DNA from: a virus
Virus genome (UHGV): UHGV-0177176
Length of the DNA stretch: 44,115 bases
Reading direction: 5' to 3' (one strand)
Below, in pieces: positions 1 to 37,306 of this stretch. Under the pieces are notes generated by a model. That model was given only the letters and a program-made list of their open reading frames with translations, ran no database searches and was not told the DNA's origin. The first letter of the stretch is position 1. Every line of letters begins with the position of its first letter. The translations under genes were made by a program, and so were the position numbers.

Positions 1-3000
1 TAGCAGTGCGCACTGCTATCCGCGCAGCGGATGTAGGTACGGCTGTTTATGCACAGGACCAACTGGGTCAGTCTGCGGCAGTTACTGCTCTTGTAGCAGG
101 TGTAGCTGGTCTAGACCAACTATGGGATATCCGTAGGGCAGTGCGCGCGTCTACGGTAGCTGCCTCAACTACGAGAACTGCTGAGACCGCACCTAATACT
201 GCTACGGCAACTTCCCGCACTGCTCCGGAAGAAGTAGCAACAAGTCGCAATGGGGTAGATTCCCCTGCTGGCCCGTCTAATGCGCAAGCTGATAGTGCCG
301 CGGCTGCTAAAACCACTGACGGTTTACCAGAAGGTTTAAGCTTGAACGTGCTGGATGATGTAGAGCACCACGCTTACTCTGGTGTACGTGTACCTGGTAT
401 AGAGGTAGAAGTAAATCGCGGAGATAAATTGGTTGGTGTTGTGCAGGCTTATCGTGTAGGTGACGATTTACAAGTAGCACATACCTGGGTTGACAAATCC
501 CTGCGCGGCAAGGGGGTAGGCGCGAGCATGTACAAAGCACTGGTTAAGCGCGCTACCGATGCAGGGTATGGCAACTTGTTGTCCGATAGCTCCGTAACTG
601 CGTCTGCTCAGCAGATGTGGCGCAAACTTGGTGCTACCAAAACCAAAGATTTTAAAGAATTAACGGATGGTATTGAGGGGCAGCGTTATGCGGTCTCTGC
701 GGATGAAAAGTCCCCACTCTTTACTTTGGACTTGAAACGTCCTGTGTTTGACCTAGATGCGCCCACAACTCGTACAGCAAGGGATACTAACGTTACCGGA
801 GTAGGAGAGGGAGACACTATCCTCACTAAGGTACTGGATGAACCTATCAAAGTTCGCCGAAACAACACTGCTGCTGTTAACATGAAAGCACAGGACGTAG
901 TCCGTTTCCTTAAGACCTCTGAGCACTTATCTAAAGGTCAGAAGGCTATCCTAGACACACTGAGCGACGCGGTACAGGACGTTGATTTTAAGTTGGTGGC
1001 AGGCTCTTCTAACCGTAGCCACTACAGCTTTCCACTGGTATCAAGAACTGATAGAGGTTTTGTATCTTTACGTGCCCCTAAGAAAGCTAATGGAAGTACT
1101 TGGACAACTGTAGGTGATGCCCTACGCGCCATGGACGCCGATACTAGTCGAGTAGCAGTACACGAGCTGATTCACGCTGCCACCACTAGGGCCCTTAAGC
1201 GGAACCCTGAAATTGCTAGTAAGCTGGAAGAGGTGCGCGCTGCAATAGCAGCCGATTCAACCCTCAGTGACAAGCTTAAGTACTACGCAAGCGATGTGCA
1301 CGAGATGTTAGCTGGACTAGGTGATAGTCCTGAGTGGGTGGAGTATCTCTCTAGAACTCAATCTCCCACTGGTAAGAGTATGCTCCGTCAGATTGGCGAG
1401 TACATCATGAATGCCCTTGGAGTTCGTACTAAAGGCTCTGCTTTGGAAGATGTACTCGATGCGTATGAGGATGCTGTTAAGTGGACTGCAAAAGACTACG
1501 TAGAACAAGTTCAGAGCTTCCGCAGCGAATCCTTCCAGGACCTAGCGGATACATCAGTTAAGAATGAGGCCCTGAAAGCCCAGGCTATGATAGACACAGC
1601 TAAGCGTAAATTCGCTACTATGTTCTCACTCTATGACAATATTGCAGAAGGTAGCGAGGACCTGGCACGCCTGCTGGTATCTGATGCTACTGCTGTAGGT
1701 GGGCGTAAACCGTCTGTGGTGGACTTCAAGCGTAACCTTACGTTGGAGATGGACGCCAGTGCTAGTGTAGTTGAAGATGCTATACTCGGTGCCCTTAAGG
1801 ATAAGGGTGTAGGTTTTCTGGACCGCTTCTTCCATCGTAGCAACTTCAGAGCAGCACGAGCTGACTTAGAAGACCGCTTAGGCCGTTACCTGGACTCCGC
1901 GTACAGTGCTGAGGTTAATGGACGCCCTGTGCCTCTGCCGGACTCTGACTTGGTTCCGCTAGTAGAGGCGTATCGCAACTCCGGTTGGGCCAGTAAGTGG
2001 CATGACCACATGACTGCTGCTGGTTTAGTGGATGACGGTACTCTGGTTAAATCAGATTACTACTTCCCACGCCAGTATAGCTACGATAAGATGCGCCAAG
2101 GTATTGCAAACGGTCGCTCCCTGGATAACTACAGGGATTTATTCCGCCAGGCATTACGTGACGTGTACCCGTCTATGGAACCTGAGGTTGTTCAGCGTGT
2201 CGCTAAGGAAATGGTTGACGGCATCTACAACGGACGCACCTCGGCTTCCGGCCCTATGTGGAAGCAGCTCATCAACGGTATGGGTAATGACGAAGTAGTC
2301 ATGGCTATGCGTAATGCTGGCGTAGACGAGAGCGCAATCCAGAGCTTCCTGGCGGGTAACGTCCGGGAATCCGGTGCTACTTCTCCTGCTCGGAACCTGC
2401 GTCAACGTACTCGCTTCAACATGGACAAAGAGTACATTGTGGATGGTCAGGCTATGCGTATGCAGGACCTGATGGATACTGACGTAGCCAAGGTGATGCA
2501 CGGTTATACCAACCGTATGTCTGGTCGTGTAGGTATGGCTTATGCTGGGGTATCTGACCTCAAGACGCTGGAGACGATGATTAACGAGTCCAAACACTCT
2601 CTGGCCGATTCCGGCAAGTGGGAGAAGACCGTTAACGACGCCATCGACTTTATCCTGGGCGGGGCACCGGCTGATGCCGGGCAGATGCCGGACCTACTGC
2701 GTGCCGCGGGGAATATGGCTAACGCCACCATGCTCAAGAACTCCGGACTATACCAGCTCACTGACACGGCCCTGGCTCTGAAAGAGTTTGGTATGTCCCG
2801 AGTACTGCGCGGTATGCGTGAGCAGCCTTGGTTTAAAGAGGGTGCCGTAGCTATCCGCACCCCGGATATGGCTAGCCGCCTGGACACAATCCTGCGTGGC
2901 AATATCCAGAAGGAGATGCGCTTTCGCTGGTTGAACACCTATGCAGACGACAACTTGGACCTGACCCGTCAGGCTTCCTGGTTTAACGTCACCCAGAACG

Positions 3001-6362: not shown

Positions 6363-8218
6363 TGGTATCGGTGAAGACTGCGCGAAGACTGCGCATGCTC
6401 AACCAGAAACTTACTGGTTATAGTGCGAATCCGCGCAGTATTCCCAAAGAGGAGCGCGAGGACATCGCGATGATGATGGCCGCTGCGCTAAGCGACTTCC
6501 GGGAATTTGCGTACATCGGTATGCGATTCCTGGGGTTTACACTGACGGACATGCAGGCCGACATTGCAGAGTACATGCAGAAGGGCCCTAGGAAGCGCAT
6601 GGTGGCTGCGCAGCGTGGTGAGGCTAAGTCTACACTAGCTGCGCTCTACGCTGTATGGAGGCTCATCCAGGACCAGTCCTGCCGTATCCTGATTGTATCA
6701 GGGGCGGAGAAGCAGGCGTCCGACGTAGCGAACTTAATCATTCGTATGCTGGAAACCTGGCCGCTGCTGTGCTACTTAAAGGCCGACCCTACCCGCGGGG
6801 ACCGTACTTCATTCGAAGGCTACGACGTCAACTGCGACCTGAAACCGCTGGATAAGTCTGCCAGCGTAGCGTGTGTCGGTATTACCGCGTCCCTGCAGGG
6901 GAAGCGTGCTGACCTCTTGATTCCAGATGATATTGAGACCACCAAGAACGGTTTGACACAAACCCAGCGTGAGCAGCTGCTGATGATTTCGAAAGACTTC
7001 GCGGCTATCTGTACGCACGGGGACACGCTGTACCTGGGTACACCGCAGACCAAGGACAGTATTTACAAGACCCTGCCGGGGCGTGGCTTCGAGGTCCGCG
7101 TGTGGCCCGGACGCATCCCGTCTGTTGAAATGGAAGAACGATATGGAAGTACACTTGCTCCTTATATACTGCAGCTCATTGAGCGGGGTTATAAACGCAC
7201 CGGCTTCGGCGTCGACGGGACGCTAGGGGAGAGCACCGACATTGGTCGCTACGACGAGGATGCGCTGATTGAGAAGGAACTGGACTTTGGTCCAGAGGGC
7301 TTCCAGCTGCAGTACATGCTCGACACGACCCTGTCTGACCAGATGCGTACCCGTATCAAGCTGTCGGATATGCTTGTATACTCCGGTAGTCTGGACTCTT
7401 CTCCTGAGACCTTCTCCTACATTGCGGACCGCCGGTACCTGTACCAGCATGAGCATGAAGGGATTATGGGTCAGCAGATGTACTCTCCGGCATTCTACGG
7501 GGATATGCACTTGCCGTATCAGCACAAGGTGCTGGTGGTGGACCCGGCTGGTTGTGGCGGGGATGAAGTCTCCTATGCTGCAGGCGGAGCTGCGAACTCA
7601 TACATTCACCTGTTCTCCGTTGGGGGTTTCCAAGGAGGTGTAAGCACTGAGAATATCGACAAGCTCATTGACCTGTGCGTAGAGTTGGACATCTCGGACA
7701 TGGTGGTGGAGAGCAACATGGGGCACGGCACTGTGTCCATGCTTATCCTGAACCGTTTACGAGAGCGTCGTCTTGCTGGTATCGGTGTGCGTGACATCAA
7801 CAACACCACACAGAAAGAGCGCCGTATTATCGACACAATCAGCCCAGTAACTCGACGTCACCGCCTGGTAGTGCATGAGCGTGCTATCCACGACGATATC
7901 GGAACCTGTATGTTATATTCCCGGGACCGTCGCTGGCTGTACTCTGCGTTCGCGCAGCTCGCGGGTATTACGTATGACCGCGGTAGTCTCGCTAAGGATG
8001 ACCGAGCGGACGCCGTCGCTATGATGGTGGCAGTGCTGAACGGGCACTTGGTAGAAGACGAGAAAGTAGTAGCTGAGCGTGAGTCCGAGAAGATGGCCCT
8101 GGCCTTCATTGAGAATCCGCTGGATTGGGCACAGAACAAAGTGTCTAAGGGACTTCGCGGTGTAGCGGCTCGGTTGCAGAACCGAGGCAGAGGTAAACAA
8201 CATAGAGGAAGAAGATAA
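6362..8218 (+). CDS. Terminase large subunit (gp19-like, DNA maturase B)
   Basis: 618-aa ORF with size and position typical of T7-group TerL. TAATG overlap with the upstream gene. Confidence 0.85.
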   Translation: MVSVKTARRLRMLNQKLTGYSANPRSIPKEEREDIAMMMAAALSDFREFAYIGMRFLGFTLTDMQADIAEYMQKGPRKRMVAAQRGEAKSTLAALYAVWRLIQDQSCRILIVSGAEKQASDVANLIIRMLETWPLLCYLKADPTRGDRTSFEGYDVNCDLKPLDKSASVACVGITASLQGKRADLLIPDDIETTKNGLTQTQREQLLMISKDFAAICTHGDTLYLGTPQTKDSIYKTLPGRGFEVRVWPGRIPSVEMEERYGSTLAPYILQLIERGYKRTGFGVDGTLGESTDIGRYDEDALIEKELDFGPEGFQLQYMLDTTLSDQMRTRIKLSDMLVYSGSLDSSPETFSYIADRRYLYQHEHEGIMGQQMYSPAFYGDMHLPYQHKVLVVDPAGCGGDEVSYAAGGAANSYIHLFSVGGFQGGVSTENIDKLIDLCVELDISDMVVESNMGHGTVSMLILNRLRERRLAGIGVRDINNTTQKERRIIDTISPVTRRHRLVVHERAIHDDIGTCMLYSRDRRWLYSAFAQLAGITYDRGSLAKDDRADAVAMMVAVLNGHLVEDEKVVAERESEKMALAFIENPLDWAQNKVSKGLRGVAARLQNRGRGKQHRGRR

Positions 8219-12037: not shown

Positions 12038-12187
12038 AGCATCTGGCAATCACAGGGGTATCCTTGGAGCGCTCTTGGGGTATCTCTAGGGTATCTCTGT
12101 AGGAGTTCATGGGCGCACGTCTATATCTGGACCTAAAATTTATTAGACTTACGCGAGGGCCTCCCTCACCCTCAGCGCGCCCAATTG

Positions 12188-12233
12188 CCCCCATAGGGGG
12201 GTGCCTAGGGAGAATTTAGGGGGGGGGCACCCC
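12188..12233. repeat. Compound palindrome: CCCCC-ATA-GGGGGG, plus the inverted repeat GGGGTGCC…GGCACCCC flanking a G9 homopolymer
   Basis: Read directly: cccccatagggggg at 12188-12201, GGGGTGCC at 12198-12205, GGCACCCC at 12226-12233, G9 at 12219-12227. Confidence 0.8.
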
Positions 12234-12600
12234 TAGTGGGCTGCTTGGGCCTGCTAGTGCGCACCAGCGGGCCTCAGTGGCTCTCTGCGCTGCGCTAGGG
12301 CTATCGCTAGTGCTACCCTACGGCTATCCCTGTGCGTTCACTGTGGGGCCGCTAGGGCGCTCTATGGGGCGCTGGAGGTGCGCTCTGCCTTGCTTATTTT
12401 GTGCGCCTCAGTGTGGCACCTAGTGGGGCCATAGTGGACCACCTAGTGCGCCGGCAGAGCGTCACAGTGCTATCACTAGTGCGCACTCGGCTATCCATTG
12501 GCTATCCTTAGCGCTTTACATTGTGCTTATTATATGCTACGCTGCGCGCTCCCCACTAGGGCGCACATCCACTATCCGCCACTATCCCTAGAGCTATCCC
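12233..12600. repeat. Array of dispersed short direct repeats (CTAGTG[C/G] at least 6 times; GCTATCC at least 6 times; CTAGGGCGC 2 times)
   Basis: CTAGTG occurs at about 12233, 12254, 12308, 12420, 12443, 12474 (and 12856). CTATCC occurs at about 12300, 12324, 12491, 12502, 12572, 12582, 12594. This is analogous to the short-repeat arrays in T7 terminal repeats. Confidence 0.6.
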
Positions 12601-12633
12601 TTCTATATTCTCTTTCATTCGGAAGCTAGTATG

Positions 12634-12656
12634 AAATGAAGTTACCGGAGTAGGAG
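12634..12656 (+). promoter_or_regulatory. Copy B of the conserved motif AAATGAAGTTACCGGAGTAGGA(G); candidate phage-RNAP promoter in an OL-like position
   Basis: Exact 22-mer shared with 32404-32425. The 16-nt core GTTACCGGAGTAGGAG is shared with 792-807. Confidence 0.4.
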
Positions 12657-12810
12657 GGTTTTAGGGAACTACATACACACTACACACTACTACTCACTAG
12701 TATCCCCTAGTAATGCCCTGTATTACGACCGTAGGGAGTAAGCATTACCTACATATTAACCGCATTGCTCCGTGTCCTTTCACTTCGTACGGACACTACG
12801 CACTGCCTTA

Positions 12811-12860
12811 TGTAGTATTGGTTAGTATTGGTTAGCATTGGTTAGTAGTGGCTAGTGCCA
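12811..12860. repeat. Tandem 10-bp repeat (GTTAGTATTG, about 5 units, degenerate at the 3' end)
   Basis: tgtagtattg|gttagtattg|gttagcattg|gttagtagtg|gctagtgcca. A 10-bp phase suggests an iteron-like or protein-binding array. Confidence 0.75.
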
Positions 12861-12889
12861 TCCATAGTGTGGTTATAAGTCCTTGCCCT

Positions 12890-12960
12890 GCTTACTCTTT
12901 TTGCTCTTAAGGATAAATATTTGCAAAAACTTTAAAATAATACTTGCTTCTTTTGGTCTG
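12890..12960. other. AT-rich island in an otherwise ~53% GC genome
   Basis: ctttttgctcttaaggataaatatttgcaaaaactttaaaataatacttgcttctttt. It lies adjacent to the 10-bp array and upstream of the sigma70-like promoters. Confidence 0.6.
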
Positions 12961-13075: not shown

Positions 13076-13104
13076 TTGACACCGCGAAGAACATAAGCTA
13101 GATT
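13076..13104 (+). promoter_or_regulatory. Sigma70-like early promoter P1 (TTGACA, 17 nt spacer, TAGATT)
   Basis: Perfect -35 at 13076-13081, 17-nt spacer, -10 TAGATT at 13099-13104, A-rich sequence upstream. It lies ~410 nt before the first early gene, as with T7 A1-A3. Confidence 0.5.
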
Positions 13105-13218: not shown

Positions 13219-13247
13219 TTGACAAGTTCGGATTCACCTAGTAACTT
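13219..13247 (+). promoter_or_regulatory. Sigma70-like early promoter P2 (TTGACA, 17 nt spacer, TAACTT), weaker -10
   Basis: Perfect -35 at 13219-13224. The -10 matches at only 3/6 positions. Confidence 0.3.
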
Positions 13248-13520
13248 AGATGGCGAACGATGCAGTAAGCCGATTTGCGGGGAGGCCCAGTACCTTGACT
13301 GGTACGATAACGACCAATCCTAGATAATCAGTGTAGTAAAGAAGTAACATCAAGAGCTGAGATGACAAACGGCTGGGGCGCTGAGGCGCTGCCCCTTAAA
13401 AGAATAGCGCCGAACCCTGAGCCACAGGGTCCACGGTTGTGCAGTGGGTAACAAGGTTAAGAATTAGCGTCCTACTAAATTCTGCTAGGGCGTTAATCAT
13501 TAACTTTGATGAGGTACACA

Positions 13521-13736
13521 ATGAAATATCGTGATAAGTTAGCGCAACAATTTGCCGGGCTGGAGAAGTTATCAGGTGCGGAATTGAGAAAGCGTCGAGA
13601 TGCGTTGAATCGCGCCGGTTATATGCGGATGAAACAATCCGCTACATTCAGCACGAATGTACGCGGTAAAACCAAAACAAAGGGCAGTAGCAAGGCTCCG
13701 CAAGGTTGGTACACTGCCGGGCAGTTCGGACGCTAA
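13521..13736 (+). CDS. Early protein (71 aa, basic)
   Basis: SD GAGGT lies 5 nt upstream of the ATG at 13521 (the track ORF starts at a TTG at 13506). First gene of the early region. Confidence 0.6.
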   Translation: MKYRDKLAQQFAGLEKLSGAELRKRRDALNRAGYMRMKQSATFSTNVRGKTKTKGSSKAPQGWYTAGQFGR

Positions 13737-13745
13737 TTACAGCCT

Positions 13746-13769
13746 ATAGCATCCTATAGGGGGTGCTAT
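13746..13769 (+). promoter_or_regulatory. Intergenic RNA hairpin H1 (9-bp stem ATAGCATCC/GGGTGCTAT, loop TATAGG) with conserved 3' flank GCTATGTGAA; candidate RNase III site or attenuator
   Basis: Starts 10 nt after the stop of the first early gene. Near-identical element at 14528-14549 with a compensatory A-U to G-C change. Confidence 0.5.
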
Positions 13770-13813
13770 GTGAAGTAATTCGTTAAATAAACAACCAATA
13801 AATGAGGTGTATC

Positions 13814-14389
13814 ATGATTAACGCAACCAACAAAGTATTCAAATTAACCGCCGCTGGCAATATCCGCAAAGCACTGGGCGACGTAGTGGAAGTAAAACGC
13901 AATATTACTATCAGTGCGTTGTTCCACGGCCTGATTAGTAGCAACGTTTCTTGGGCGACTGATATGCAGCGCAGTGATGCCGCCGATTTTGATATGGTGC
14001 TGCGTACACTGCTGCCTATCAAGTTCAACAAAGAATCGGGCAAGTACGAGTTCCACGCTAAGAAGTGTTATGCATCGGCTGAGAAGCTGGGCATTGAACT
14101 GGACGCCGTGCGTCTGGATTATAAACAAGCTGACAAACAAGGCCGCGAAGAGATTGTTGCCAGCTTCTACAGCGCTTGCATGGCTCTGTACAACGCTGAA
14201 GCGGATAAGGTGAAGAATGATGCACTTGATGCCGATGCAATGCGTTTACAAGCTCTGGGGCGCGTTAAAAACGCCATCAAGAAGGCAAAAGAGACTGGCG
14301 TAAGCGATTCAGATTTGGTGAGTATGCTTATTAGTCAGGGCGTGGATGTACGCGCTGTGCTGGACGCAACGCTGAAGGTGCCAGCATGA
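13814..14389 (+). CDS. Early protein (191 aa), unknown function
   Basis: SD GAGGTG lies 5 nt upstream of the ATG at 13814. Protein-like composition. Confidence 0.7.
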   Translation: MINATNKVFKLTAAGNIRKALGDVVEVKRNITISALFHGLISSNVSWATDMQRSDAADFDMVLRTLLPIKFNKESGKYEFHAKKCYASAEKLGIELDAVRLDYKQADKQGREEIVASFYSACMALYNAEADKVKNDALDADAMRLQALGRVKNAIKKAKETGVSDSDLVSMLISQGVDVRAVLDATLKVPA

Positions 14390-14517
14390 TTTACAAGGTT
14401 CCGGTTATCAAGTGGTGGGCACTGTGCCCTGCGGCCAACGATGCGGACGCCTTCAACATCCCTACCCGTGGCCGTCACAACAAGTGGCGGTATGAGGGAT
14501 TAGGGGAATACGTATAG
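14386..14517 (+). CDS. Possible micro-ORF (43 aa) coupled by ATGA overlap
   Basis: ATG overlaps the upstream TGA. No SD. Below the 60-aa track cutoff. Confidence 0.25.
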   Translation: MIYKVPVIKWWALCPAANDADAFNIPTRGRHNKWRYEGLGEYV

Positions 14518-14527
14518 TGGCAAGCCT

Positions 14528-14549
14528 ATAGCGTCCTACGGGGCGCTAT
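14528..14549 (+). promoter_or_regulatory. Intergenic RNA hairpin H2 (stem ATAGCGTCC/GGGCGCTAT, loop TACG), paralogue of H1
   Basis: Same flanks (CCTATAGC…GCTATGTGAA) as H1. The stem has a compensatory G-C where H1 has A-U. Confidence 0.5.
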
Positions 14550-14577
14550 GTGAATGCAACTAGCGTATGGGTTTCAA

Positions 14578-14796
14578 ATGAAAGCAATCATGATTTATCC
14601 TGGGCACGCTTTGTGGCTTGGTTGGTGCAATCAAGTACAAGAATATAACTTCTCTGTGCTGATATTCTCCGACCGAGATACTGAGCAAGAGCACCCGCTG
14701 GATATAGTTGACACTAACACCGAACTGGCTGCCCGCACTGTGCTGGACGCCGTGAATCTTGGTATCATCACCGACTGGAGGCAGTTATATGGTTAA
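14578..14796 (+). CDS. Early protein (72 aa, acidic)
   Basis: ORF follows H2. The start is uncertain (ATG at 14554 or 14578). Confidence 0.5.
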   Translation: MKAIMIYPGHALWLGWCNQVQEYNFSVLIFSDRDTEQEHPLDIVDTNTELAARTVLDAVNLGIITDWRQLYG

Positions 14797-15064
14797 TGTA
14801 TTCAATATTATTGTGACCAGCGCTATGCTGGTGCTGGGCAACGATGTAAACAACCCGGTGCCCTACTGTACTGTGCAGTTGCAGCAGCAATCACAGCAAC
14901 CGGCGGCGCAGGAACCGTTAGCGCGTCCTGAGTATGATCTCTTTGAAGACCCTGAGGGTGGTTGTAAAGAGCTGGGCGCGCGTATCCTTGCGGCGGTGCA
15001 GGGGCAGTACCCGGACGCCGCCGTGACACTCACTGTGGACGGTAAGAGCAGTGATGAAATTTGA
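14789..15064 (+). CDS. Early protein (91 aa) with N-terminal hydrophobic helix and Gln-rich segment
   Basis: SD GGAGG lies 7 nt upstream of the ATG at 14789. N-terminus VFNIIVTSAMLVLG is TM-like. Confidence 0.55.
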   Translation: MVNVFNIIVTSAMLVLGNDVNNPVPYCTVQLQQQSQQPAAQEPLARPEYDLFEDPEGGCKELGARILAAVQGQYPDAAVTLTVDGKSSDEI

Positions 15065-15072
15065 GGTTGGGT

Positions 15073-15252
15073 ATGTACGGAAAGAATCCTGAAACGATGC
15101 TGATGCGTAAGCAGCAACCAACAATCGACGGGCTGGCGCGTGAATACAGCGCAAAAGCAGTGTTGCGCCAGCACTATGAGAAACAAGCAAAGCGGCTGGG
15201 CATGACTCTGCGCGGTTACTGTCAACGTTTTAATGTGAGGGGTGTAGTATGA
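15073..15252 (+). CDS. Early protein (59 aa)
   Basis: SD GAGGTTGGG before the ATG at 15073. ATGA-coupled to the next gene. Confidence 0.5.
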   Translation: MYGKNPETMLMRKQQPTIDGLAREYSAKAVLRQHYEKQAKRLGMTLRGYCQRFNVRGVV

Positions 15253-15464
15253 GCAAGAGTACAACTAAGCCTATTAAGTACGATGTATACAAGAGCCCGT
15301 ATGGGATACTATACCGAGTGCGACTACATAGTGCGCTGCACGAGCCTGCCGAGTACTACTTCAAAGTGTGGGGTTGGTGGGCGCAGTCATACGCCACAAT
15401 TGGTGATGTAGTAGCTGGCAGTGGGAGCACGCTAGTGGCCCGCAACGTAGTATTCAAGGATTGA
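15249..15464 (+). CDS. Early protein (71 aa)
   Basis: SD GAGGGGTG lies before the ATG. Confidence 0.6.
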   Translation: MSKSTTKPIKYDVYKSPYGILYRVRLHSALHEPAEYYFKVWGWWAQSYATIGDVVAGSGSTLVARNVVFKD

Positions 15465-15466
15465 AT

Positions 15467-15811
15467 ATGCTCACAGTAGACGAAACTGCTGTTTTCATAT
15501 GGAGACTACTAGAAACGCAGGGCAAGTGCGGCTGCCCGTGGGAAATATTCAAAGAGGTTCCAGATGAACTCAAAGGAATTGTACCGGTCGATCGCCGAAT
15601 ACTTAGAGTGCGCAGGCAAGACACAACGGTTGTGCTCAAAGCATACCGGGAGTATACAGAATCTGCCGCGCGGAAACTGCAAGAGCGCATTGAATTCGAC
15701 GTGGTTTCAACGCTACGGAAGTATGGATATCGCGGAGCTTATACGCAATTTAGAAGAGCACTCCGCTCCTACTACAAGCAGCGACAACTCTCTGCGTGGT
15801 ATGCACGCTGA
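15467..15811 (+). CDS. Early protein (114 aa), basic
   Basis: SD AAGGA before the ATG at 15467. It overlaps the upstream extension of the long ORF in another frame, and is preferred over that extension. Confidence 0.55.
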   Translation: MLTVDETAVFIWRLLETQGKCGCPWEIFKEVPDELKGIVPVDRRILRVRRQDTTVVLKAYREYTESAARKLQERIEFDVVSTLRKYGYRGAYTQFRRALRSYYKQRQLSAWYAR

Positions 15812-15857
15812 ACTTTTAATGTATGATGAGTTACTACTAACACCGGAGACAAAGAAA

Positions 15858-17573
15858 ATGCAAGAGACTAACAAAGTAACCGTAGATGCAAACGTACCTG
15901 CAAATGTACCTGCCTACGAGGGTTGGACCATCAAATTTCCAGAAGGGGCCAATGCTCTTCCACTGAAGGAACAGATGTACTCTTCCGGGGATTACTGGTG
16001 CCAACTTCCCTACCTATCAACTCAAGGCCGTGCGCGCGTGCAAAGTAACAAAATGCGTGCGCTTTTGAATGGCTTTTATATGTTGTCAAGGGTGCTGCCG
16101 GGGTATACTGTAGCACTCGGCAACTTTACAGCTGCAGGAGAGGATTTGGGTGGGTATGCTGGGCCGCTGGGCACAGTTGATATTAGTGACACTCTCCTGC
16201 ATAAGCTCCTTGACTGTGCAGTTACCTGCGACCAAGCATTCGGTTCATATAGCAGAACCTTCTATGATGGCCCCGACGTAGTTACAGAACGCGTAGTAGA
16301 GGCGGTCCAATACTTTACCGGATATAAGGTGCACAAGCAGGCTATTGAGTTGTTTGAAGAGATTATGCTAGCACCTACGTACTCCCTTCGGGCCAAATAC
16401 ACTCGCGGCGCGTACGGTGAGCGTGATAGGGATTACTGGGCAGCAACCTTGCTTATGCAGTTGCACGGATTCGTGGTGTCTAGATTTGCAATCCCCCTGG
16501 GTTTTGGCTTCCGCAACGGTGAGCCGGTAGTAATGCTGGGGCAGCCACGGCTGCACAAAGACTATGCTGCTGTTACTGAGTATCGCTGTGTGGAGATGCG
16601 AGTAGGTAAGTGGCTCGCTAACTATTACGGTAGCGGTGTAGACTTCCGGGAAAGTATTGAAGACCTCAAGGCTATGAATGTAGATCCAACCACATATCTT
16701 TGTAAGACCGAAGAGGAGTGGTACAACGCATACGAGAAAGGCCCGCGTAGCTGCATGACCGGATATAACTTCGAGTATAGCCCGGTGCGTGTATATGCCA
16801 CGACCAGTCACGGATTGCCTGACAATAATCTGCGACTGTTTATTCAGTATACTGGCGAACTTTTTGGTGATGATTTTAAAGTGCACGCCCGTGCTATCGT
16901 TAACATCAATACCAATGAATATGTCCGTGCATACGGGGATGCTGCGCACGCTATCCTGCGTGCTAATGGGTATGTGAACGATACAGACTGCTTAGATGGC
17001 GCACTGCTGGCGCGTATACCACACCCAGAGCATGACGGTGCCGTGCTTATGCCGTACTTGGATGGGAACCAAGACGGGGTGGATGAAGAAGGAGCAGACG
17101 CATTTCGCATCTGCGACTGCTACGACTACGAAGCGCTGGACGCTGATGGGTACATTTGGATTGATGATGGTCGCAGTGCTTGTACAGAGTGCGGGGGACG
17201 TTTCGACGAGGATGACATGTACATAACTTGTGACGGTGGTTATGTATGCCCGCACTGCATCGGTGATACTTACGTACAGGTAGTGGGCCACAGCATAGTG
17301 TACCCATCATTGGATTGCTCATGGTCTGACTACCACGACTCTTGGGTACTTGACCGGGACGTAGAGGATTGTGCTGTAGAGGGTACAGTGCATGACGAAG
17401 AGCCAATGGCGTGCGCACAAGGGTACAATGTTCTAGGTATTCATGCAGAAGAACACCCAGTGCACGGGATGATTCTCACGGAGTATGCTGCATCCGTATT
17501 GGATGAGCCTTACCTCGGCAACGAGGAAGCTAAAGAAGACAAAGAAGCTAACGCAGAACAGGAGGCAGCTTAA
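15858..17573 (+). CDS. Large early protein (~571 aa) with a C-terminal Cys cluster (CTECGG…CDGGYVCPHC) and an acidic tail; function unknown
   Basis: The long ORF is open from 15564. The start at 15858 is chosen because of SD GGAGA 8 nt upstream (alternative ATGs at 15801 and 15819). No ligase KxDG motif and no nucleotide-binding motif was recognised. Confidence 0.7.
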   Translation: MQETNKVTVDANVPANVPAYEGWTIKFPEGANALPLKEQMYSSGDYWCQLPYLSTQGRARVQSNKMRALLNGFYMLSRVLPGYTVALGNFTAAGEDLGGYAGPLGTVDISDTLLHKLLDCAVTCDQAFGSYSRTFYDGPDVVTERVVEAVQYFTGYKVHKQAIELFEEIMLAPTYSLRAKYTRGAYGERDRDYWAATLLMQLHGFVVSRFAIPLGFGFRNGEPVVMLGQPRLHKDYAAVTEYRCVEMRVGKWLANYYGSGVDFRESIEDLKAMNVDPTTYLCKTEEEWYNAYEKGPRSCMTGYNFEYSPVRVYATTSHGLPDNNLRLFIQYTGELFGDDFKVHARAIVNINTNEYVRAYGDAAHAILRANGYVNDTDCLDGALLARIPHPEHDGAVLMPYLDGNQDGVDEEGADAFRICDCYDYEALDADGYIWIDDGRSACTECGGRFDEDDMYITCDGGYVCPHCIGDTYVQVVGHSIVYPSLDCSWSDYHDSWVLDRDVEDCAVEGTVHDEEPMACAQGYNVLGIHAEEHPVHGMILTEYAASVLDEPYLGNEEAKEDKEANAEQEAA

Positions 17574-18607
17574 TGTATGGTGTTGACCTTAAACTACTGA
17601 CAAAGATACTAACAACGCACCGACCTAGCTGGGGTAGTACCAAATGGTTTGAACCTCTACTTAGTAGCGCTCTTGCTGGTGGGGAACACTATGTAAGAGA
17701 CGCTCATGGTAACTACTTTGTGCTTATTGGTGACTCTGAACAGAGTGATGTAGCATTTACATCACACCTCGACACAGTGGCCCGGCCTGGTAGTGCTGCG
17801 CCAGACATTGCAATCACTAACAAGGGTGTAATGTTCCTGCGGAATCCACAGGTGGCGGATTGTCTAGGTGCAGACTGTGGTGCTGGTATTTACCTGATGC
17901 TGGAGATGATTAAGCGGGGAGTACATGGACGTTACTGTTTCTTCGTGGATGAAGAGGTAGGCTGTGAGGGTAGCAGTGCATCCGCCAAGGACGACACTGG
18001 CTTCTGGACGGGGGTCAAGGCGATGATTAGCTTTGACCGCCGAGGTGATGGGATCATTACGCATCAACGATACCAGCGTTGCTGTTCTGATACGTTTGCA
18101 AAGGAACTGGCGGCTCGACTAGGACGAACAGATGCGCACTTACAGAAAGGGGTATACACGGACTCCGCTGAGTTCATGCAGATTATCCCAGAATGCACTA
18201 ACATAGGCGTAGGGTACATGCACGAACATACTCCGGATGAGGTGCTGGACCTTAGCATTCTTGGCAGCGTACTGGAGCACGTACTCAGTCCGGGTACATT
18301 CAAGCACCTGCCGATTGAGCGTGATCCTAAAGTAGTGGAACCGGATGCGTGGTTATCTGCCTATACGCATCCCCTAACGATGCCCCTGGATGTTCCCCCT
18401 GCGGAAGATCCGCATTTACTAGCAGCGTTTAAGGAGGTGTCACAACTTTCTAAGCAGCAACTGATTAGCTGGGTGCTAGATAACCCAGCAAGAGCGGCGG
18501 AATACATCATGGTGTATTCTGACTACGGATTTCGTGATGAGCTGATTGAACTAGGCACCCGAGTTGTAGAGGACTGGGGTGGATACGATAATATTGTGGA
18601 GGGTTGA
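17573..18607 (+). CDS. M20/M28-family metallopeptidase homologue (putative peptidase)
   Basis: Motifs in order: SHLDTV (HxD), GADCGAG (GAxDxK-like), DEEVGCEGS (EE metal ligands), and a late MHEH histidine. SD GGAGG 7 nt upstream. TAATG coupling. Confidence 0.65.
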   Translation: MYGVDLKLLTKILTTHRPSWGSTKWFEPLLSSALAGGEHYVRDAHGNYFVLIGDSEQSDVAFTSHLDTVARPGSAAPDIAITNKGVMFLRNPQVADCLGADCGAGIYLMLEMIKRGVHGRYCFFVDEEVGCEGSSASAKDDTGFWTGVKAMISFDRRGDGIITHQRYQRCCSDTFAKELAARLGRTDAHLQKGVYTDSAEFMQIIPECTNIGVGYMHEHTPDEVLDLSILGSVLEHVLSPGTFKHLPIERDPKVVEPDAWLSAYTHPLTMPLDVPPAEDPHLLAAFKEVSQLSKQQLISWVLDNPARAAEYIMVYSDYGFRDELIELGTRVVEDWGGYDNIVEG

Positions 18608-18609
18608 TT

Positions 18610-19080
18610 ATGTCTAAGTTTAAAGTTGGTGATAAAGTAGTACGCAAATCACCCGACGACAGCTCGTCGTTTAAGAAGCACCAAGGGGATTTTGATTATT
18701 ACACAGTTACAGCTATGTCCTCAGGCGGTCACTGGTTACGGTTGAACAATTATACTATCGATGGTGACTGGTACCCGTGGTATGCATCTAACTTTGAGCT
18801 GTACCAAGAGCCGGACGAAGAGCTGCCGCCTGCACCAACCTCGGTACTTTATTATAATAGTACTACGGATGCAGATAACTTCCAGCATATGCTAGTGCAG
18901 CCACATTGGGAGTTAGAGGGGCACCTCAGTATTGCCATAGTGAAGAGCGGTAAAAAGTTTGACCCCTCGGCTTACGGCGATGTACTATCTCTCAATTTGG
19001 AACCTGACGCAGCCCTGCAACTGGCGCACGACCTTCGTCGCATGGCTATGGATATTAAACGTAAGGGGAAAGCACAATGA
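18610..19080 (+). CDS. Hypothetical protein (156 aa) with N-terminal KFKVGDKVVRK module
   Basis: SD GGAGG before the ATG at 18610. The N-terminus is paralogous to that of the 29331 protein. Confidence 0.6.
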   Translation: MSKFKVGDKVVRKSPDDSSSFKKHQGDFDYYTVTAMSSGGHWLRLNNYTIDGDWYPWYASNFELYQEPDEELPPAPTSVLYYNSTTDADNFQHMLVQPHWELEGHLSIAIVKSGKKFDPSAYGDVLSLNLEPDAALQLAHDLRRMAMDIKRKGKAQ

Positions 19081-19274
19081 GCATTATCCAATACCGGAAG
19101 CAGCATGAAATACTAGTGGGAATCCCATTCACTTGGGGATGCAGATGGGTTTGGGCAATCAAGGTAGATGGTGGAGATATCTACTTCCTAGAAAACGGAA
19201 GGCAGGTGAAGGAGTCGGAGAAGAATATTATCGAGAGCGGCATTGTGTACGCCAATAGCATCGAGATTAAGTGA
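19077..19274 (+). CDS. Hypothetical small protein (65 aa)
   Basis: ATGA-coupled ORF. Confidence 0.5.
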   Translation: MSIIQYRKQHEILVGIPFTWGCRWVWAIKVDGGDIYFLENGRQVKESEKNIIESGIVYANSIEIK

Positions 19275-20062
19275 TGGACCAGCCCTGGCTTAGAGCGTGC
19301 AAGCGCCTGGCCGTGGGGCAGAGGGCACGCTTTCGGTGCTGCGGCAAGGACGCCGCCGGAGTGCTCTACAATAACCCGGATGCCTGGGAATACTATTGCC
19401 ACCGCTGCAAACAGGTAGGCAAAGAGCGCAAGCAGTACCAGCGCATACAGTTACAGGAAGAGCCGAGGGTGCAGCCCTCTGCACCTGCAGATGCAATTTG
19501 CATTAGCCAAGCGCCTGCGGAAACGCAGAGTTTTATTTACGGATTCCTTGCTTCAAAAGGAATCATGCCTGAAATGGTGGAGGATGCAGAGTGGAGCAAC
19601 GAGAAACAGCGGATACTATTCTGTGTAGGGGGTGCTGTACTGGGCCGTGCTGTTCATGCCCGGCAGCAACCGAAGTGGGTAATGTACGGGCAGCCAATAC
19701 CTTTCGCTGCCGTGGGACCTGCCGTAGCACGGGATGTAGCTGCGGCCGCGCCTCTAAAGGTCGTGCTCACAGAGGACTTACTCTCAGCCCGGAAGATACA
19801 GCACGCAGTTACGAGCTACAGTGCGTTGAACGTGCAGGCTATAGCTATGCTGGGTACACGCTTGCCCACGCCGCTGCGAGCCTGGCTGATTCAGAATCGC
19901 CCGGAAGTGATTCTGATGCTGGACAATGACCCGGCAGGGCATGCCGGGGTAGCAGCAGCGCGCAAGGCACTGCGCCCGTTCATGCAGTGCCGAGAACACT
20001 ACTTCGCTGCGGACCCGAAGGACGCAGAAATCAAAGAGATACTGGAGGCGCTTAATGCTTAA
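19274..20062 (+). CDS. DNA primase (zinc-ribbon + TOPRIM)
   Basis: CCGK…CHRC zinc ribbon. TOPRIM motifs (…VLTEDLLSARK…, …LMLDNDPAGH…). ATG at 19274 overlaps the upstream TGA. Confidence 0.8.
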   Translation: MDQPWLRACKRLAVGQRARFRCCGKDAAGVLYNNPDAWEYYCHRCKQVGKERKQYQRIQLQEEPRVQPSAPADAICISQAPAETQSFIYGFLASKGIMPEMVEDAEWSNEKQRILFCVGGAVLGRAVHARQQPKWVMYGQPIPFAAVGPAVARDVAAAAPLKVVLTEDLLSARKIQHAVTSYSALNVQAIAMLGTRLPTPLRAWLIQNRPEVILMLDNDPAGHAGVAAARKALRPFMQCREHYFAADPKDAEIKEILEALNA

Positions 20063-20261
20063 GAACAAATACAGGGTAGTCACAGATACCTATTTGGGAT
20101 ATGAGGCACAGGTAAAGTTCTGGTGGTTCCCAATTAAATGGTGGATGATTAGCCGTAGTGGCCGGGGTGTTGGTATAAATACTAATAGGACTTTGAAAGA
20201 CGCAGAGTTACTCTGCCGTATGCATCGCAGCGGTGCTGGCATATACAAAGTGGAGGTATGA
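20055..20261 (+). CDS. Hypothetical small protein (68 aa)
   Basis: Coupled ORF between primase and helicase. Confidence 0.45.
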   Translation: MLKNKYRVVTDTYLGYEAQVKFWWFPIKWWMISRSGRGVGINTNRTLKDAELLCRMHRSGAGIYKVEV

Positions 20262-20485
20262 TGAGCGTACAACTAATTAGCCATGTTTGCGATTGTGGAA
20301 AGGGGTATCGCTCTTGGCACGACCTGAAATGTGGACACTGTCGCAGTAAGCAAGAGGAGCGCAAGCTGGTACAGTACCACCAAGCATTAGAAGACGCAAA
20401 GCGGCGACTACAGTTAGAATATTTCCGCCACTACGTCCACGAAGTTGGCGGCCCAAACAGGACTATCAGGGTGGAGGTGGTATAA
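20258..20485 (+). CDS. Hypothetical zinc-ribbon protein (75 aa)
   Basis: CDCG…CGHC motif. ATGA-coupled. Confidence 0.5.
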   Translation: MMSVQLISHVCDCGKGYRSWHDLKCGHCRSKQEERKLVQYHQALEDAKRRLQLEYFRHYVHEVGGPNRTIRVEVV

Positions 20486-21766
20486 TTGGACCTTATAGTT
20501 GTTAAGGCGATGTGCACGCAGAAGGTCTGGAACAGACTGCGAGAGCAGATACCCAAGTCTATGCTAGCGCCGGACACCTCGAACCTACTGGACTGGGTAG
20601 GACTGTACTGGAAAACGTACCCGGAGCACCAGGAGGTGCAGTGGGATGCGATGCAGAGCATGCTCAACCTCCGGGCCGGGCACCTATCCCGTGAAGAGCG
20701 GGTGATTATGGACGAGCTTATGCGGGGAGTACAAGCCGTACCACAGGATTCTGTGGTGGGGATTGTGCAGACCCTGAACGAGCTGGCATACAGCGGAGAG
20801 GTTGCAGCGCTCACGCAGCGCTACCAAGACGGGGAGGAAGTTGATTACCTGCTGGAGATGAAGCACCTCCAGCGCAAGTACGGTGATGGTGCTGCTGTTC
20901 ATGATTCGCTACTAGAGTGGGAGAGCGGAAGTGTTGATGAGATACTTGCCGCAACTGATGAAAGTGGCGGTCTTAAGCTGGGCGTATTTGAACAACTCTC
21001 TAATAGCATCCGTGGGCTTCGTGGTGGTGATTGTATTGCTGTGGCTGCCCCTGTTGATTCTGGTAAAACTAGCCTACTCGCTGCTATTGCTGTGGACTTT
21101 GCTAAGCAGATGCAGCAGCAACCGGAAGTATACGGGGATCGTCCGATTCTATGGCTGGTTAACGAAGGCCCGGCGACGCGTACTGTGCCGAGGGTATATC
21201 AAGCGGCGTTGCATTGGACTCTGGCTGAGATTAAAGACAGGCACAGTAGGCAAGAATTTGTGCCAGCCTATCTGGAGAAAGTAGGCAGGGCTGACCGCAT
21301 CCGTATCAAGGCGGCGCACTCCCTTACGATGGCTCAAATCTCTACGCTCATGGAGGAGATGCGTCCAGCGGTAATAATCATAGACATGGTAGCTAACATC
21401 CGTGGTGGCACGATGGAGTCCGAGCACCAGAATCTAGAGGCGAAGTGGCAGGAGCTACGTATCCTGGGGTGTGAGAATGACTGTGCCGTTATCGGTACTA
21501 TGCAGCTTTCACTCGAAGGTTATAACCTGCTGTTCCCACCACTCACAGCAATGAAGCAGAGTAAGATTGGTGTACAAGGTGCTTTGGATTTAGCGATTAT
21601 GATGGGGTGCTTGGACAGGAACGAGCAGCCGCACATGCAAAACATTCGTGGTATCAGTACGCCTAAGAACAAAATGGCACTATCTGGTAAGGAGTCGCTA
21701 CTGCAATTCGAGGTAGCATTCGACCCAGGTAGGTGCCGCTTTAACGAAGGGCAGATTAACAAGTGA
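20486..21766 (+). CDS. Replicative DNA helicase (DnaB/gp4-helicase-like)
   Basis: Walker A AAPVDSGKTSLL. Appropriate size (426 aa). Apparent TTG start with SD GGAGGTGG 5 nt upstream (the next ATG is at 20510). Confidence 0.8.
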   Translation: MDLIVVKAMCTQKVWNRLREQIPKSMLAPDTSNLLDWVGLYWKTYPEHQEVQWDAMQSMLNLRAGHLSREERVIMDELMRGVQAVPQDSVVGIVQTLNELAYSGEVAALTQRYQDGEEVDYLLEMKHLQRKYGDGAAVHDSLLEWESGSVDEILAATDESGGLKLGVFEQLSNSIRGLRGGDCIAVAAPVDSGKTSLLAAIAVDFAKQMQQQPEVYGDRPILWLVNEGPATRTVPRVYQAALHWTLAEIKDRHSRQEFVPAYLEKVGRADRIRIKAAHSLTMAQISTLMEEMRPAVIIIDMVANIRGGTMESEHQNLEAKWQELRILGCENDCAVIGTMQLSLEGYNLLFPPLTAMKQSKIGVQGALDLAIMMGCLDRNEQPHMQNIRGISTPKNKMALSGKESLLQFEVAFDPGRCRFNEGQINK

Positions 21767-21772
21767 CTTCCC

Positions 21773-21795
21773 TAGCGCCTTCTCTGAGGGCGCTA
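21773..21795 (+). promoter_or_regulatory. Intergenic hairpin H3 (stem TAGCGCC/GGCGCTA, 9-nt loop) with GCTATGTAGG flank, related to H1/H2
   Basis: Lies 7 nt after the helicase stop and is followed by a strongly SD-led small ORF. Confidence 0.4.
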
Positions 21796-21817
21796 TGTAG
21801 GTAAATAGGAGGCTACC

Positions 21818-24727: not shown

Positions 24728-24891
24728 TGATATAGGTGGACCCTTGGGTGGTGTAGGGGGTTAGGGTAACACGAGAATTAGCTGGGGTCAAGCAGATAAT
24801 TAAATAAAATTATTTGTTGACTCTGGCTTGATTCTGTGATTTACCGAGAATTAATGTGATACGAGTAGGAACAACATAAGAGAGGCAACCC

Positions 24892-29789: not shown

Positions 29790-29933
29790 TGCATGGTGCC
29801 ACCAGATGTGGCAAGCAGCAATAGAGCGGGGTGATGAAAGCTCCGCTAATGACTACCTGGAGATGTACAATCTCTGGTTAAGTCGAAACCAGTAATTAGA
29901 AATACCGGACATAACCAAGGAGGTTAAGCGCCT

Positions 29934-32403: not shown

Positions 32404-32425
32404 AAATGAAGTTACCGGAGTAGGA
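32404..32425 (+). promoter_or_regulatory. Copy C of the 22-mer AAATGAAGTTACCGGAGTAGGA; candidate late phage promoter. Its 3' end supplies the SD for the ORF at 32426
   Basis: Exact 22/22 match to 12634-12655. It lies immediately after the RNAP stop (32400-32402). Confidence 0.45.
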
Positions 32426-32869: not shown

Positions 32870-33129
32870 GCGGTGGGTTAGGTAAACTATTAGGTAAGGC
32901 CACGGATATGCTCGGCCTTACTGATAATGAAGGATTAGAGCAACAGCAGCGCATGGCGCAGCAGCAGGCTGAAGCAGCAAAACAACAGGCAGCCTTAGAA
33001 ACTAACAGCGCAGCCGATAATATTGCTGAGGTAGACCCATCCGGGGCGGCCTCTGCATCTGCAGATGCAATTACGTCTGAGCAGAAGAAACGGCGACAGG
33101 CAGGGCAGAGCAATCCCCTGGGCCTGTAA
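32866..33129 (+). CDS. Small virion-associated protein candidate (87 aa, Gln/Ala-rich)
   Basis: ATGA-coupled. It precedes the portal gene. Confidence 0.5.
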   Translation: MSGGLGKLLGKATDMLGLTDNEGLEQQQRMAQQQAEAAKQQAALETNSAADNIAEVDPSGAASASADAITSEQKKRRQAGQSNPLGL

Positions 33130-37224: not shown

Positions 37225-37261
37225 GCCCCTGGTGCCTTCGGGTGCCGGGGGCTTTTTTTTT
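37225..37261 (+). terminator. Rho-independent terminator (stem GCCCCUGGUGCC/GGUGCCGGGGGC with UUCG tetraloop, then U9), Tphi-like, after the capsid module
   Basis: Read directly: gcccctggtgcc ttcg ggtgccgggggc ttttttttt. The stem contains 3 G-U pairs. Confidence 0.8.
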
Positions 37262-37306
37262 GTCCCTGTCTTAAGGGTCCTAGGGGTCTTTAATAGAGGA
37301 ACAAAT

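Follow-up and report, generated by a model that had tools for sequence, protein, structure and literature searches.

What is the role of the near-identical hairpins that stand between the early genes of a KP34-like podophage? The question arises from UHGV virus genome UHGV-0177176, a stretch of 44,115 nucleotides (nt) that was analysed at its full length and is called the window below. A first-pass annotation had described three hairpins, H1, H2 and H3, at the places confirmed here, and had proposed that RNA structure is selected in them where phage T7 has its RNase III processing sites. All three fold (Table 1), and two further members, H0 and H4, are added to them. Each element was shown to be a two-tier helix, about two turns long, that lies between cistrons on the sense strand and in which pairing is kept by compensatory change. 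Comparative pairing, the determinants of RNase III and a model of the T7 early sites all favour the earlier proposal, and we regard it as reasonably probable that the hairpins are RNase III processing and stabiliser sites in the early mRNA, as in phage T7.

Pairing in the two-tier hairpins

H1 and H2 stand directly after early genes, as had been stated (the first early gene and a gene of 43 amino acids (aa), respectively), and are near-identical, with CCTATAGC...GCTATGTGAA in common. In H1, the inner stem joins 13745-13754 to 13761-13770 and is followed by the mismatch C13744 x U13771, the pair C13743-G13772, a loop of AG opposite AA, and an outer stem (13735-13740/13775-13780). In H2, the inner stem (14527-14536/14541-14550) is capped by a UACG tetraloop and followed by C14526 x U14551, C14525-G14552, the same AG/AA loop and an outer stem (14515-14522/14555-14562), which is extended by 14508-14513/14563-14568 to a total of about 24 base pairs (bp). 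The stem that had been described as 9 bp long is actually an inner stem of 10-11 bp, with an outer stem beyond the small internal loop. A covariance model of H1/H2 scores the two elements at 60.8 and 72.6 bits. They differ in the loop, which has two more bases in H1, and in one pair, A-U in H1 (13751/13764) versus G-C in H2 (14533/14544). This pair, which had been put forward as classic covariation, is real and weak evidence alone, but it is borne out by the relatives: among 63 distinct copies, it is G-C in 32, A-U in 30 and unpaired in one.

A search of relatives for the motif and for further covarying pairs, as the annotation had suggested, was run in 38 and then 61 IMG/VR loci, fHe-Kpn01 and five more distant annotated phages. 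The covariance-model alignment contains 85 copies, 63 of them distinct, from about 50 related loci, four other Autographiviridae lineages included; 50 distinct copies align free of gaps, with column i pairing with column 51-i. Double changes were found in 10-11 of the 19 pairs. The fraction of paired cells was 92.5-93.3% (50- and 63-copy alignments), compared to 77% in shuffled alignments, none of 500 of which reached the observed value, and to 21-43% when the columns were slid by 1-3. Every strong match to the model falls in a gap between cistrons and reads in the coding direction, and its outer stem contains the stop codon of the upstream gene.

From the apex outward, the element consists of a near-invariant inner stem of 10 bp, the CxU mismatch, one C-G pair, a 2x2 loop in which AG faces AA, and the outer stem. 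The outer stem is represented by at least six unrelated sequences, all of them complementary in the same register: TAATTAC/GTAATTA at site 1 (TAGTTAC/GTAACTA in the related locus L037), TAGTAGCA/TGCAACTA at site 2 (TAATGGTA/TACCGTTA in L003), GGTTAAT/ATTAACC in an extra copy of some phages, UGGCUGAU/AUCAACCA in Bonnellvirus, and AGUAGCAC/GUUCUACU in Phimunavirus. The loop is free to vary (UACG, UAUG, UGCG, UUCG, CACG, plus insertions). Compensation was found even at an "invariant" base of the inner stem, where U-A is replaced by C-G in L089 and in L095, the most distant relative, and C.A is present as an intermediate in L099. In the Kosakonia phage Kc261 (gap 1745), three consecutive pairs are swapped (A-U, U-A, A-U to G-C, C-G, U-A), and this diverged copy retains both U.G wobbles, the CxU mismatch and the C-G pair. 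Because the outer stems differ yet pair in one register, and because the inner stem undergoes compensatory changes, the alignment indicates that intrastrand pairing is under selection. A protein site in double-stranded DNA would not require such pairing.

The third, looser member that had been placed after the helicase gene is H3, in which a stem (21773-21782/21786-21795) is followed by CxU, C-G, CxU and a 4-bp outer stem, ACUU/AGGU (21766-21769/21799-21802). H2 and H3 share the exact 11-mer GGGCGCTATGT and its hairpin context, and the pattern TAGCGNC...GGGCGCTATGT was found in 0 of 100 shuffles. The conserved GCTATGT(G/A) flank of the annotation stands in this longer form only: the 8-mer alone is not above chance (4 copies versus 4.9 expected), and its fourth copy, at 37670, is plain coding sequence, whereas the 11-mer together with the hairpin context is above chance. 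H3 was not found by the H1/H2 covariance model at E<=10, and on these comparisons it is a more distant relative of H1 and H2. It is nearly invariant across the genus and absent from L095; covariation was looked for in the relatives and none was found, the site being too conserved. In H1, H2 and H3 alike, the stop codon of the upstream gene falls within the 5' arm of the outer stem or shortly before it.

H0 is two-tier like H1 and H2: a 2x2 internal loop separates the outer stem, CAAGGUUAA/UUAACUUUG, from an inner stem that contains GCGUCC/GGGCGU with the conserved U.G. The H1/H2 model gives it a weak match (13451-13509, 16.5 bits, E 0.034), and GCGUCC/GGGCG is common to H0 and H2. In relatives, H0 is kept with a constant outer stem and a variable apex. 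H4 came to light solely in the RNase III pattern scan described below; its sequence, CUUAAGGGUCC UAG GGGUCUUUAAUAG, recalls the T7 flanks and not the KP34 motif. It is kept in about 55 related loci whichever gene lies downstream, and the changes seen in it are all one-sided and preserve the pairs; a related-locus search with the 111-aa protein upstream of H4 gave no match. Rfam gave no match at the gathering threshold in the whole window, and nothing relevant at E<=1 around H0-H3.

Table 1. Hairpins, promoters and terminator of the window, with coordinates and predicted folds
Feature	Positions	Strand	Context or sequence	Fold
H0	13452-13508	+	Diverged member, 5' leader of first early gene (ATG 13521)	-25.5 kcal/mol, z -4.66
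H1	13735-13780	+	Between first early gene (TAA 13734-13736) and 191-aa gene (ATG 13814)	-18.7 kcal/mol, z -3.66
H2	14508-14568	+	After 43-aa gene (stop TAG 14515-14517)	-24.1 kcal/mol, z -3.49
H3	21766-21802	+	After helicase gene (TGA 21764-21766), before gene starting 21818	-18.7 kcal/mol, z -1.82
H4	37259-37305	+	Late region, directly after intrinsic terminator, before gene at ATG 37307	
Sigma-70 early promoter	13076-13104	+	TTGACA-17-TAGATT	
Second sigma-70 early promoter	13219-13247	+	TTGACAagttcggattcacctagTAACTT	
KP34-type promoter variants	788-803, 12637-12652, 32407-32422	+	TAACGTTACCGGAGTA once and TGAAGTTACCGGAGTA twice; shuffle expectation 0.07	
Strong intrinsic terminator	37225-37261	+	GCCCCUGGUGCC UUCG GGUGCCGGGGGC, then U9	

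RNase III determinants and the T7 early sites

In Escherichia coli RNase III targets, a helix of 11 bp lies between the tetraloop and the cleavage site, and a length of about two helical turns is typical; the distal box consists of U-A followed by U.G, and the proximal box (pb) of G-C, A-U or U-A, A-U, and A-U or U-A (Pertzev and Nicholson 2006, PMC1540722). According to the same work, every tested substitution in the distal box weakens binding, G-C or C-G blocks binding at pb2 and cleavage at pb4, and the natural T7 site R1.1 has a "UC pair" at pb4. An internal loop confines cleavage to a single strand, with a protective hairpin remaining at the 3' end, and coaxial stacking of short helices is allowed (PMC1540722). 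The register of our comparison was set on folded T7 R1.1 by the numbering of that paper (C9:G30 as pb2, U12:G27 and C13:G26 as the middle box). Counted from the loop-closing pair, positions 1-14 of this ladder are C-G U-A U.G A-U C-G U.G G-C G-C A-U A-U CxU U-A CxU AxG in T7 R1.1, C-G U-A U.G C-G C-G G-C C-G G-C A-U U-A CxU C-G CxU U-A in H3, and C-G C-G U.G G-C C-G G-C A-U U-A A-U U.G CxU C-G GxA AxA in H2, with H1 alike. H0 has U.G at position 3, a proximal box made entirely of A/U pairs, and AxC at position 11, followed by GxA.

The two-turn helix is present throughout, with pairs distributed as 6+4+3+1+10 in H2, 6+1+10-11 in H1, 9+12-13 in H0 and 10+1+4 plus mismatches in H3. H1 (in the register with a 6-nt loop), H2 and H3 have ten pairs and then CxU at position 11, as do T7 R1.1 and R0.5. 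The distal box is a full match in H3 (U-A, U.G) and a half match in H0, H1 and H2 (C-G, U.G); its second position is U.G in 60 of the 63 copies, and the natural T7 sites R0.5, R0.3 and R1 deviate from the distal box as well. At pb2 all 63 copies have A-U, and pb4 is CxU, hence neither inhibitory position carries G-C or C-G. The preferred pairs are found in part, pb1 being G-C in H3 and U-A in H1 and H2, and pb3 being U-A in H3 and U.G in H1 and H2. The predicted target site itself lies in an internal loop or at mismatches, CxU/C-G/CxU in H3 as against CxU/U-A/CxU in R1.1, and CxU/C-G/GxA/AxA in H1 and H2, from which we infer cutting of a single strand. Altogether H3 equals R1.1 at 8 of the 14 ladder positions, i.e., both distal-box pairs, pb1, pb2, pb4 and the CxU/pair/CxU loop. 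The rules of RNase III give a reason for an invariant wobble and an invariant mismatch that would otherwise be puzzling.

These features were combined in a pattern (ten contiguous pairs, loop of 3-6, U.G at position 3, A-U or U-A at 9, CxU at 11, a pair at 12). The scan of the window returned four sites on the + strand, H1, H2, H3 and H4, and none on the - strand; the mean in 100 Markov resamples was 0.03.

When the five early sites of T7 were folded for comparison, they proved to be the same kind of family, with the flanks CUCAAGGUC...GGCCUUUAUGAU conserved, the loops variable and the stem divided into an upper and a lower part. These five sites alone were the basis of a covariance model, with which both strands of the window were searched, filters off. 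H3 took the first rank (19.8 bits, E 0.008), H2 the second, H1 the fourth and H0 the sixth, and H4 was not listed. Two other matches were discarded as noise: 32888-32929 is inside an open reading frame (ORF) and folds no better than shuffles (z -0.31), and 1178-1216 (- strand) has three broken pairs.

The same model matches early intergenic gaps of Bonnellvirus and Phimunavirus (E 5.7e-5, 0.005, 0.01 and 0.06). The early regions of these phages have a two-tier hairpin in nearly every gap (L103 1056-2842, L102 2398-2462, L106 3585-3888); one gap contains the KP34-type element, and the neighbouring gaps contain T7-like hairpins (ACUCAAG...CUUUAUG). Kc261 carries the T7 flanks at 1391-1464, GACUCAAGCCAUCUUGCGAGGUGGCUUUAUGG. 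Because the neighbouring early gaps hold T7-like hairpins of the RNase III type, the KP34-type hairpin occupies the same niche. As a set, the Bonnellvirus and Phimunavirus hairpins look like RNase III-type sites that have not been described before. Several of them share a lower stem, GCGUGAU/AUCAUGC.

Genome context, the promoter label and recombination

The window is the complete, circularly permuted genome of a KP34-like Klebsiella/E. coli podophage (Autographiviridae, Slopekvirinae, Drulisvirus), with genes on the + strand throughout. Over the 9 kb around the hairpins, identity is 88-90% to the Escherichia phages Minorna, AV102 and ZH5 and likewise to many Klebsiella phages, and a metagenome contig of 44,170 bp encodes the exact 191-aa early protein as well. 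The region at about 12.0-13.4 kb contains the genome ends together with the early promoters. Both sigma-70 promoters match the host promoters of KP34-like phages listed in PMC4411677 (Table 3 of that paper), and they drive a host-polymerase transcript that contains H0-H3. The non-coding genome-end region (12040-12900, + strand) is dense in short direct repeats (CTATCC, CACTAG/CCTAGTG, GGTTAGTATTGGTTAG...), with a G9 run at 12220, and is presumably the terminal-repeat and packaging region. Two long gaps on the + strand, 24728-24891 after the DNA polymerase block and 29790-29933 before the RNA polymerase gene, are predicted to be very stable (-51.6 and -52.0 kcal/mol, respectively); a long A/U-rich hairpin lies at about 24790-24850.

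A BLAST search with the 50-nt H2 element returned 260 phage records, mostly Klebsiella phages; the other carriers are phages of Escherichia, Shigella, Pectobacterium, Dickeya, Cronobacter, Enterobacter and Kosakonia. They include Phimunavirus CB5, Bonnellvirus Kc261, megetsur and HHU8, and Wanjuvirus Arno160, and a 32-nt core is nearly identical throughout. A tie of the element to one downstream gene was considered and holds only partly: the neighbour in CB5 belongs to the same PHROG as the 191-aa protein of the window, and this is contradicted by Kc261, where the neighbour has no significant similarity (BLASTP E 0.6), and by Arno160, where the copy precedes the primase gene. The 191-aa protein itself (gene 13814-14389, + strand, directly after H1) belongs to PHROG 5277 and has no Pfam domain; its counterpart next to the same element in CB5 (L102 1829-2398) is 49% identical.

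The motif has been published under another name. Eriksson et al. (2015, PMC4411677, Table 3) reported the H1/H2 sequence, at the same two positions per genome and with the consensus AGCCTATAGCGTCCTACGGGGCGCTATGTGAA, as a "putative phage promoter" of Kp34likevirus, with nick sites as the alternative, and the records of SU503 and SU552A label it "promoter". Their description does not comprise the outer stems, H0, H3, H4, the covariation or the spread to other genera. A fragment amplified by polymerase chain reaction (PCR) that contained the motif yielded no RNA in vitro with purified KP34 RNA polymerase (Lu 2019, PMC6834552), which excludes a promoter in linear DNA. The linear PCR fragment was the sole template in that study, which leaves the variant of a hairpin-form promoter that is active on supercoiled or single-stranded DNA only. 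The experimentally defined KP34 promoter is T(A/G)ATGTTACAGGAGTA (PMC6834552), with which the hairpin motif shares nothing; variants of it are found in the window only at 788, 12637 and 32407, i.e., at the positions equivalent to those in KP34, one of them 5 nt after the RNA polymerase gene. Evidently, the phage group of the window uses ...GTTACCGGAGTA in place of ...GTTACAGGAGTA in its phage promoter. A promoter would not need covarying flanking stems either, and the promoter reading, the variant included, retains next to no probability. Thus the motif itself is already known, under a label that has been refuted, and the hairpin set is enlarged here by H0 and H4. A full-text literature search for the motif sequence returned no further interpretation.

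Covariation alone cannot tell an RNA hairpin from a hairpin in + strand DNA, and this bears on the alternative suggested by Eriksson et al., a DNA-level signal such as a site-specific nick of the phiKMV type or a replication or priming hairpin. None of the hairpins matches the phiKMV nick consensus, CGACxxxxxCCTA/CTCCGG on the non-coding strand (PMC3517423), and the loop, the site of CCTAC, varies freely. The sole mapped Drulisvirus nick (fHe-Kpn01 nt 7873, PMC7291057) lies in the primase gene, whereas the motif copies of that phage are at 1664, 2769 and 9999. We consider a DNA-level role very improbable. Two observations on nicks were made elsewhere in the window. At 12646-12656 and 797-807 (- strand), the 3' half of the nick consensus (CCTA/CTCCGG) is the exact reverse complement of the promoter start region (ACCGGAGTAGG), such that the phiKMV-like "nick" motif may coincide with phage promoters. 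Within the primase gene, positions 19454-19513 (+ strand) are identical at 59 of 60 nt to the surroundings of the fHe-Kpn01 nick (nt 7873, ...CCCTCTGCA|CCTGCAGATGCAATTTGCAT), and the phage of the window may carry the same nick near 19483.

The annotation had also offered factor-independent attenuators lacking a U-tract, and a stable hairpin that contains G+C directly after a gene has this appearance. The consensus scan, however, called no terminator-like site at H0-H3, and there is no U run in the downstream flanks. A genuine terminator, the one reported for KP34-like phages, is present at 37225-37261 with its U9, and the separate hairpin H4 follows it within 10 nt. Such a role is therefore hardly credible. 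A start-stop mini-ORF in the 3' flank (AUG-UGA in H1 and H2, AUG-UAG in H3; 13769-13774, 14549-14554 and 21795-21800), with GGGG or GAGGG four bases upstream of the AUG and within the stem, was dropped as probably coincidental, because L010 and L083 have AUGCGA, some relatives have GUGUGA, and T7 R1 and R1.3 have no AUG.

The repeats are also found at the borders of rearranged segments. In L076 (1245-1293), L097 (1256-1304) and L057 (4288-4336), the 5' flank of site 1 is joined to the 3' flank of site 2, and the genes between them are deleted. An extra copy is present in L045, L061 and L018, in some relatives about 80 nt after site 1 (L045 1522-1659); site 1 of L045 is a gene-conversion-like hybrid with an A.C mismatch; L073 (5031-5081) and L065 (4727-4777) keep only the 5' half; and the positions of elements relative to genes differ in fHe-Kpn01. 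These cases could be read as a sign that the repeats are primarily recombination or cassette-boundary elements, with a hairpin that has no processing role. Recombination, however, needs sequence identity only, and leaves unexplained the covarying outer stems that are not identical, the strict sense orientation and the fit to RNase III; moreover, H0, H3 and H4 are single-copy, yet conserved. This explanation appears highly unlikely. In phages of the T4 type, promoter-early stem-loop cassettes are repeated intergenic hairpin sequences that flank small early genes and coincide with their gain and loss. A promoter is part of those cassettes, whereas in the window the promoters have other positions, and the conserved features belong to the hairpin itself.

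Proposed processing and comparison with phage T7

Under the RNase III interpretation, the host enzyme would bind the coaxial helix in the manner of T7 R0.3-R1.3, and the mismatch and internal loop at ladder positions 11-14 would confine the cut to the 3' strand, about two nt below CxU. The predicted cuts are 13773|13774 in H1, 14553|14554 in H2 and 21798|21799 in H3. Cutting would leave the stable inner hairpin at the 3' end of the upstream cistron, as a shield against 3' exonucleases, and would create a new 5' end for the downstream cistron, 20-40 nt ahead of its start codon. The near-identical repeats also serve as recombination points for the gain and loss of early gene cassettes, as a side effect. 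In the T7 work of Dunn and Studier, R1.1 is reportedly cut after CCUUUAU. The cut position is predicted by analogy with R1.1 and is consistent with a 2-nt stagger to the 5'-strand site in PMC1540722.

Several observations weigh against this interpretation. H1 and H2 are off the optimum, with C-G at the first position of the distal box, U-A at pb1 and U.G at pb3, and the individual scores of H1, H2 and H0 with the T7-site model are not significant (E 0.7-3). A strand test based on sporadic mismatches revealed no bias of G.U over A.C (20 versus 17 without the two invariant wobbles). The outer stem is broken in some genomes, namely in the recombinants L076, L097 and L057 and in the truncated copies of L073 and L065, and site 1 of fHe-Kpn01 has a defect in the upper stem. 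Across different subfamilies, hardly any change is seen in the 32-nt core, the unpaired A, G / A, A and the CxU included. It should also be noted that the literature search returned no cleavage, transcript-end or rnc-mutant results for these phages, and that the look-up of exact proteins for transcript-derived contigs returned only whole-genome metagenome contigs.

The invariance of the core deserves separate consideration, since its primary sequence is conserved beyond the known requirements of RNase III. Drulisvirus, Bonnellvirus, Phimunavirus and Wanjuvirus have almost the same core, AGCCUAUAGCGUCCUNCGGGGCGCUAUGUGAA, despite differing flanking genes; by these alignments it is conserved in four Autographiviridae lineages that infect Enterobacterales. 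Variation is absent or almost absent at the unpaired positions 10, 11, 13, 40 and 41, and the two U.G wobbles persist without being "repaired". The core could be the site of a dedicated factor, such as a phage or host RNA-binding protein with a role in translation, stability or polymerase processivity, or RNase III could bind without cleavage, since it is known to act as a binding protein on sites that it leaves uncleaved (PMC1540722). Comparable conservation is seen among the paralogous RNase III sites of T7, however, the element is not bound to one neighbouring gene family, and the diverged copy swaps three "invariant" pairs. No candidate protein emerged either: ten small early proteins gave only DUF7267 (Pfam) and PHROGs of unknown function. 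On balance, we consider another binding factor or binding without cleavage unlikely. It is quite doubtful, too, that the core is a dedicated cis-acting RNA signal for a phage or host factor of which the T7-like geometry would be only a part; such a signal could be, for example, a switch by which the end of upstream translation, on the stop codon within the outer stem, is coupled to the processing or translation of the early gene that follows.

About 260 sequenced phage genomes carry the element, many Klebsiella phages in therapy development among them. If the hairpins are RNase III sites, the promoter annotation in some of these records would be corrected, and the failure of the motif as a promoter would be explained. 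The early and DNA-metabolism block upstream of the RNA polymerase gene in phiKMV-like phages is presumed to be transcribed first by the host polymerase; the T7 paradigm, in which host RNase III sculpts and stabilises early mRNAs, would extend to the phiKMV-like phages of enterobacteria. The elements would provide compact natural processing or insulator elements and safe points of cassette insertion for phage engineering, and the repeats mark where early genes are gained and lost.

The closest known system is the set of T7 early sites. The T7 sites are known as cleaved, and the KP34-type sites are known here from sequence and fold. The phages differ in type, the phiKMV-like ones having the RNA polymerase gene late in the DNA-metabolism block, and the primary sequences differ as well, CCUAUAGC...GCUAUGUGAA in the KP34-type elements versus CUCAAGGUC...GGCCUUUAUGAU in T7; the symmetric 2x2 loop and the extra C-G pair of H0-H2 are unlike the T7 loop. 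On the other hand, R0.3, R0.5, R1, R1.1 and R1.3 of T7 are, like H0-H3, intercistronic in an early transcript made by the host polymerase, and H0 precedes the first early gene as R0.3 precedes gene 0.3. Both sets consist of paralogues with conserved flanks and variable loops, in which an upper stem of 9-13 bp is followed by a mismatch or internal loop and a lower stem, and both have CxU at the 11th position and U.G in the distal box.

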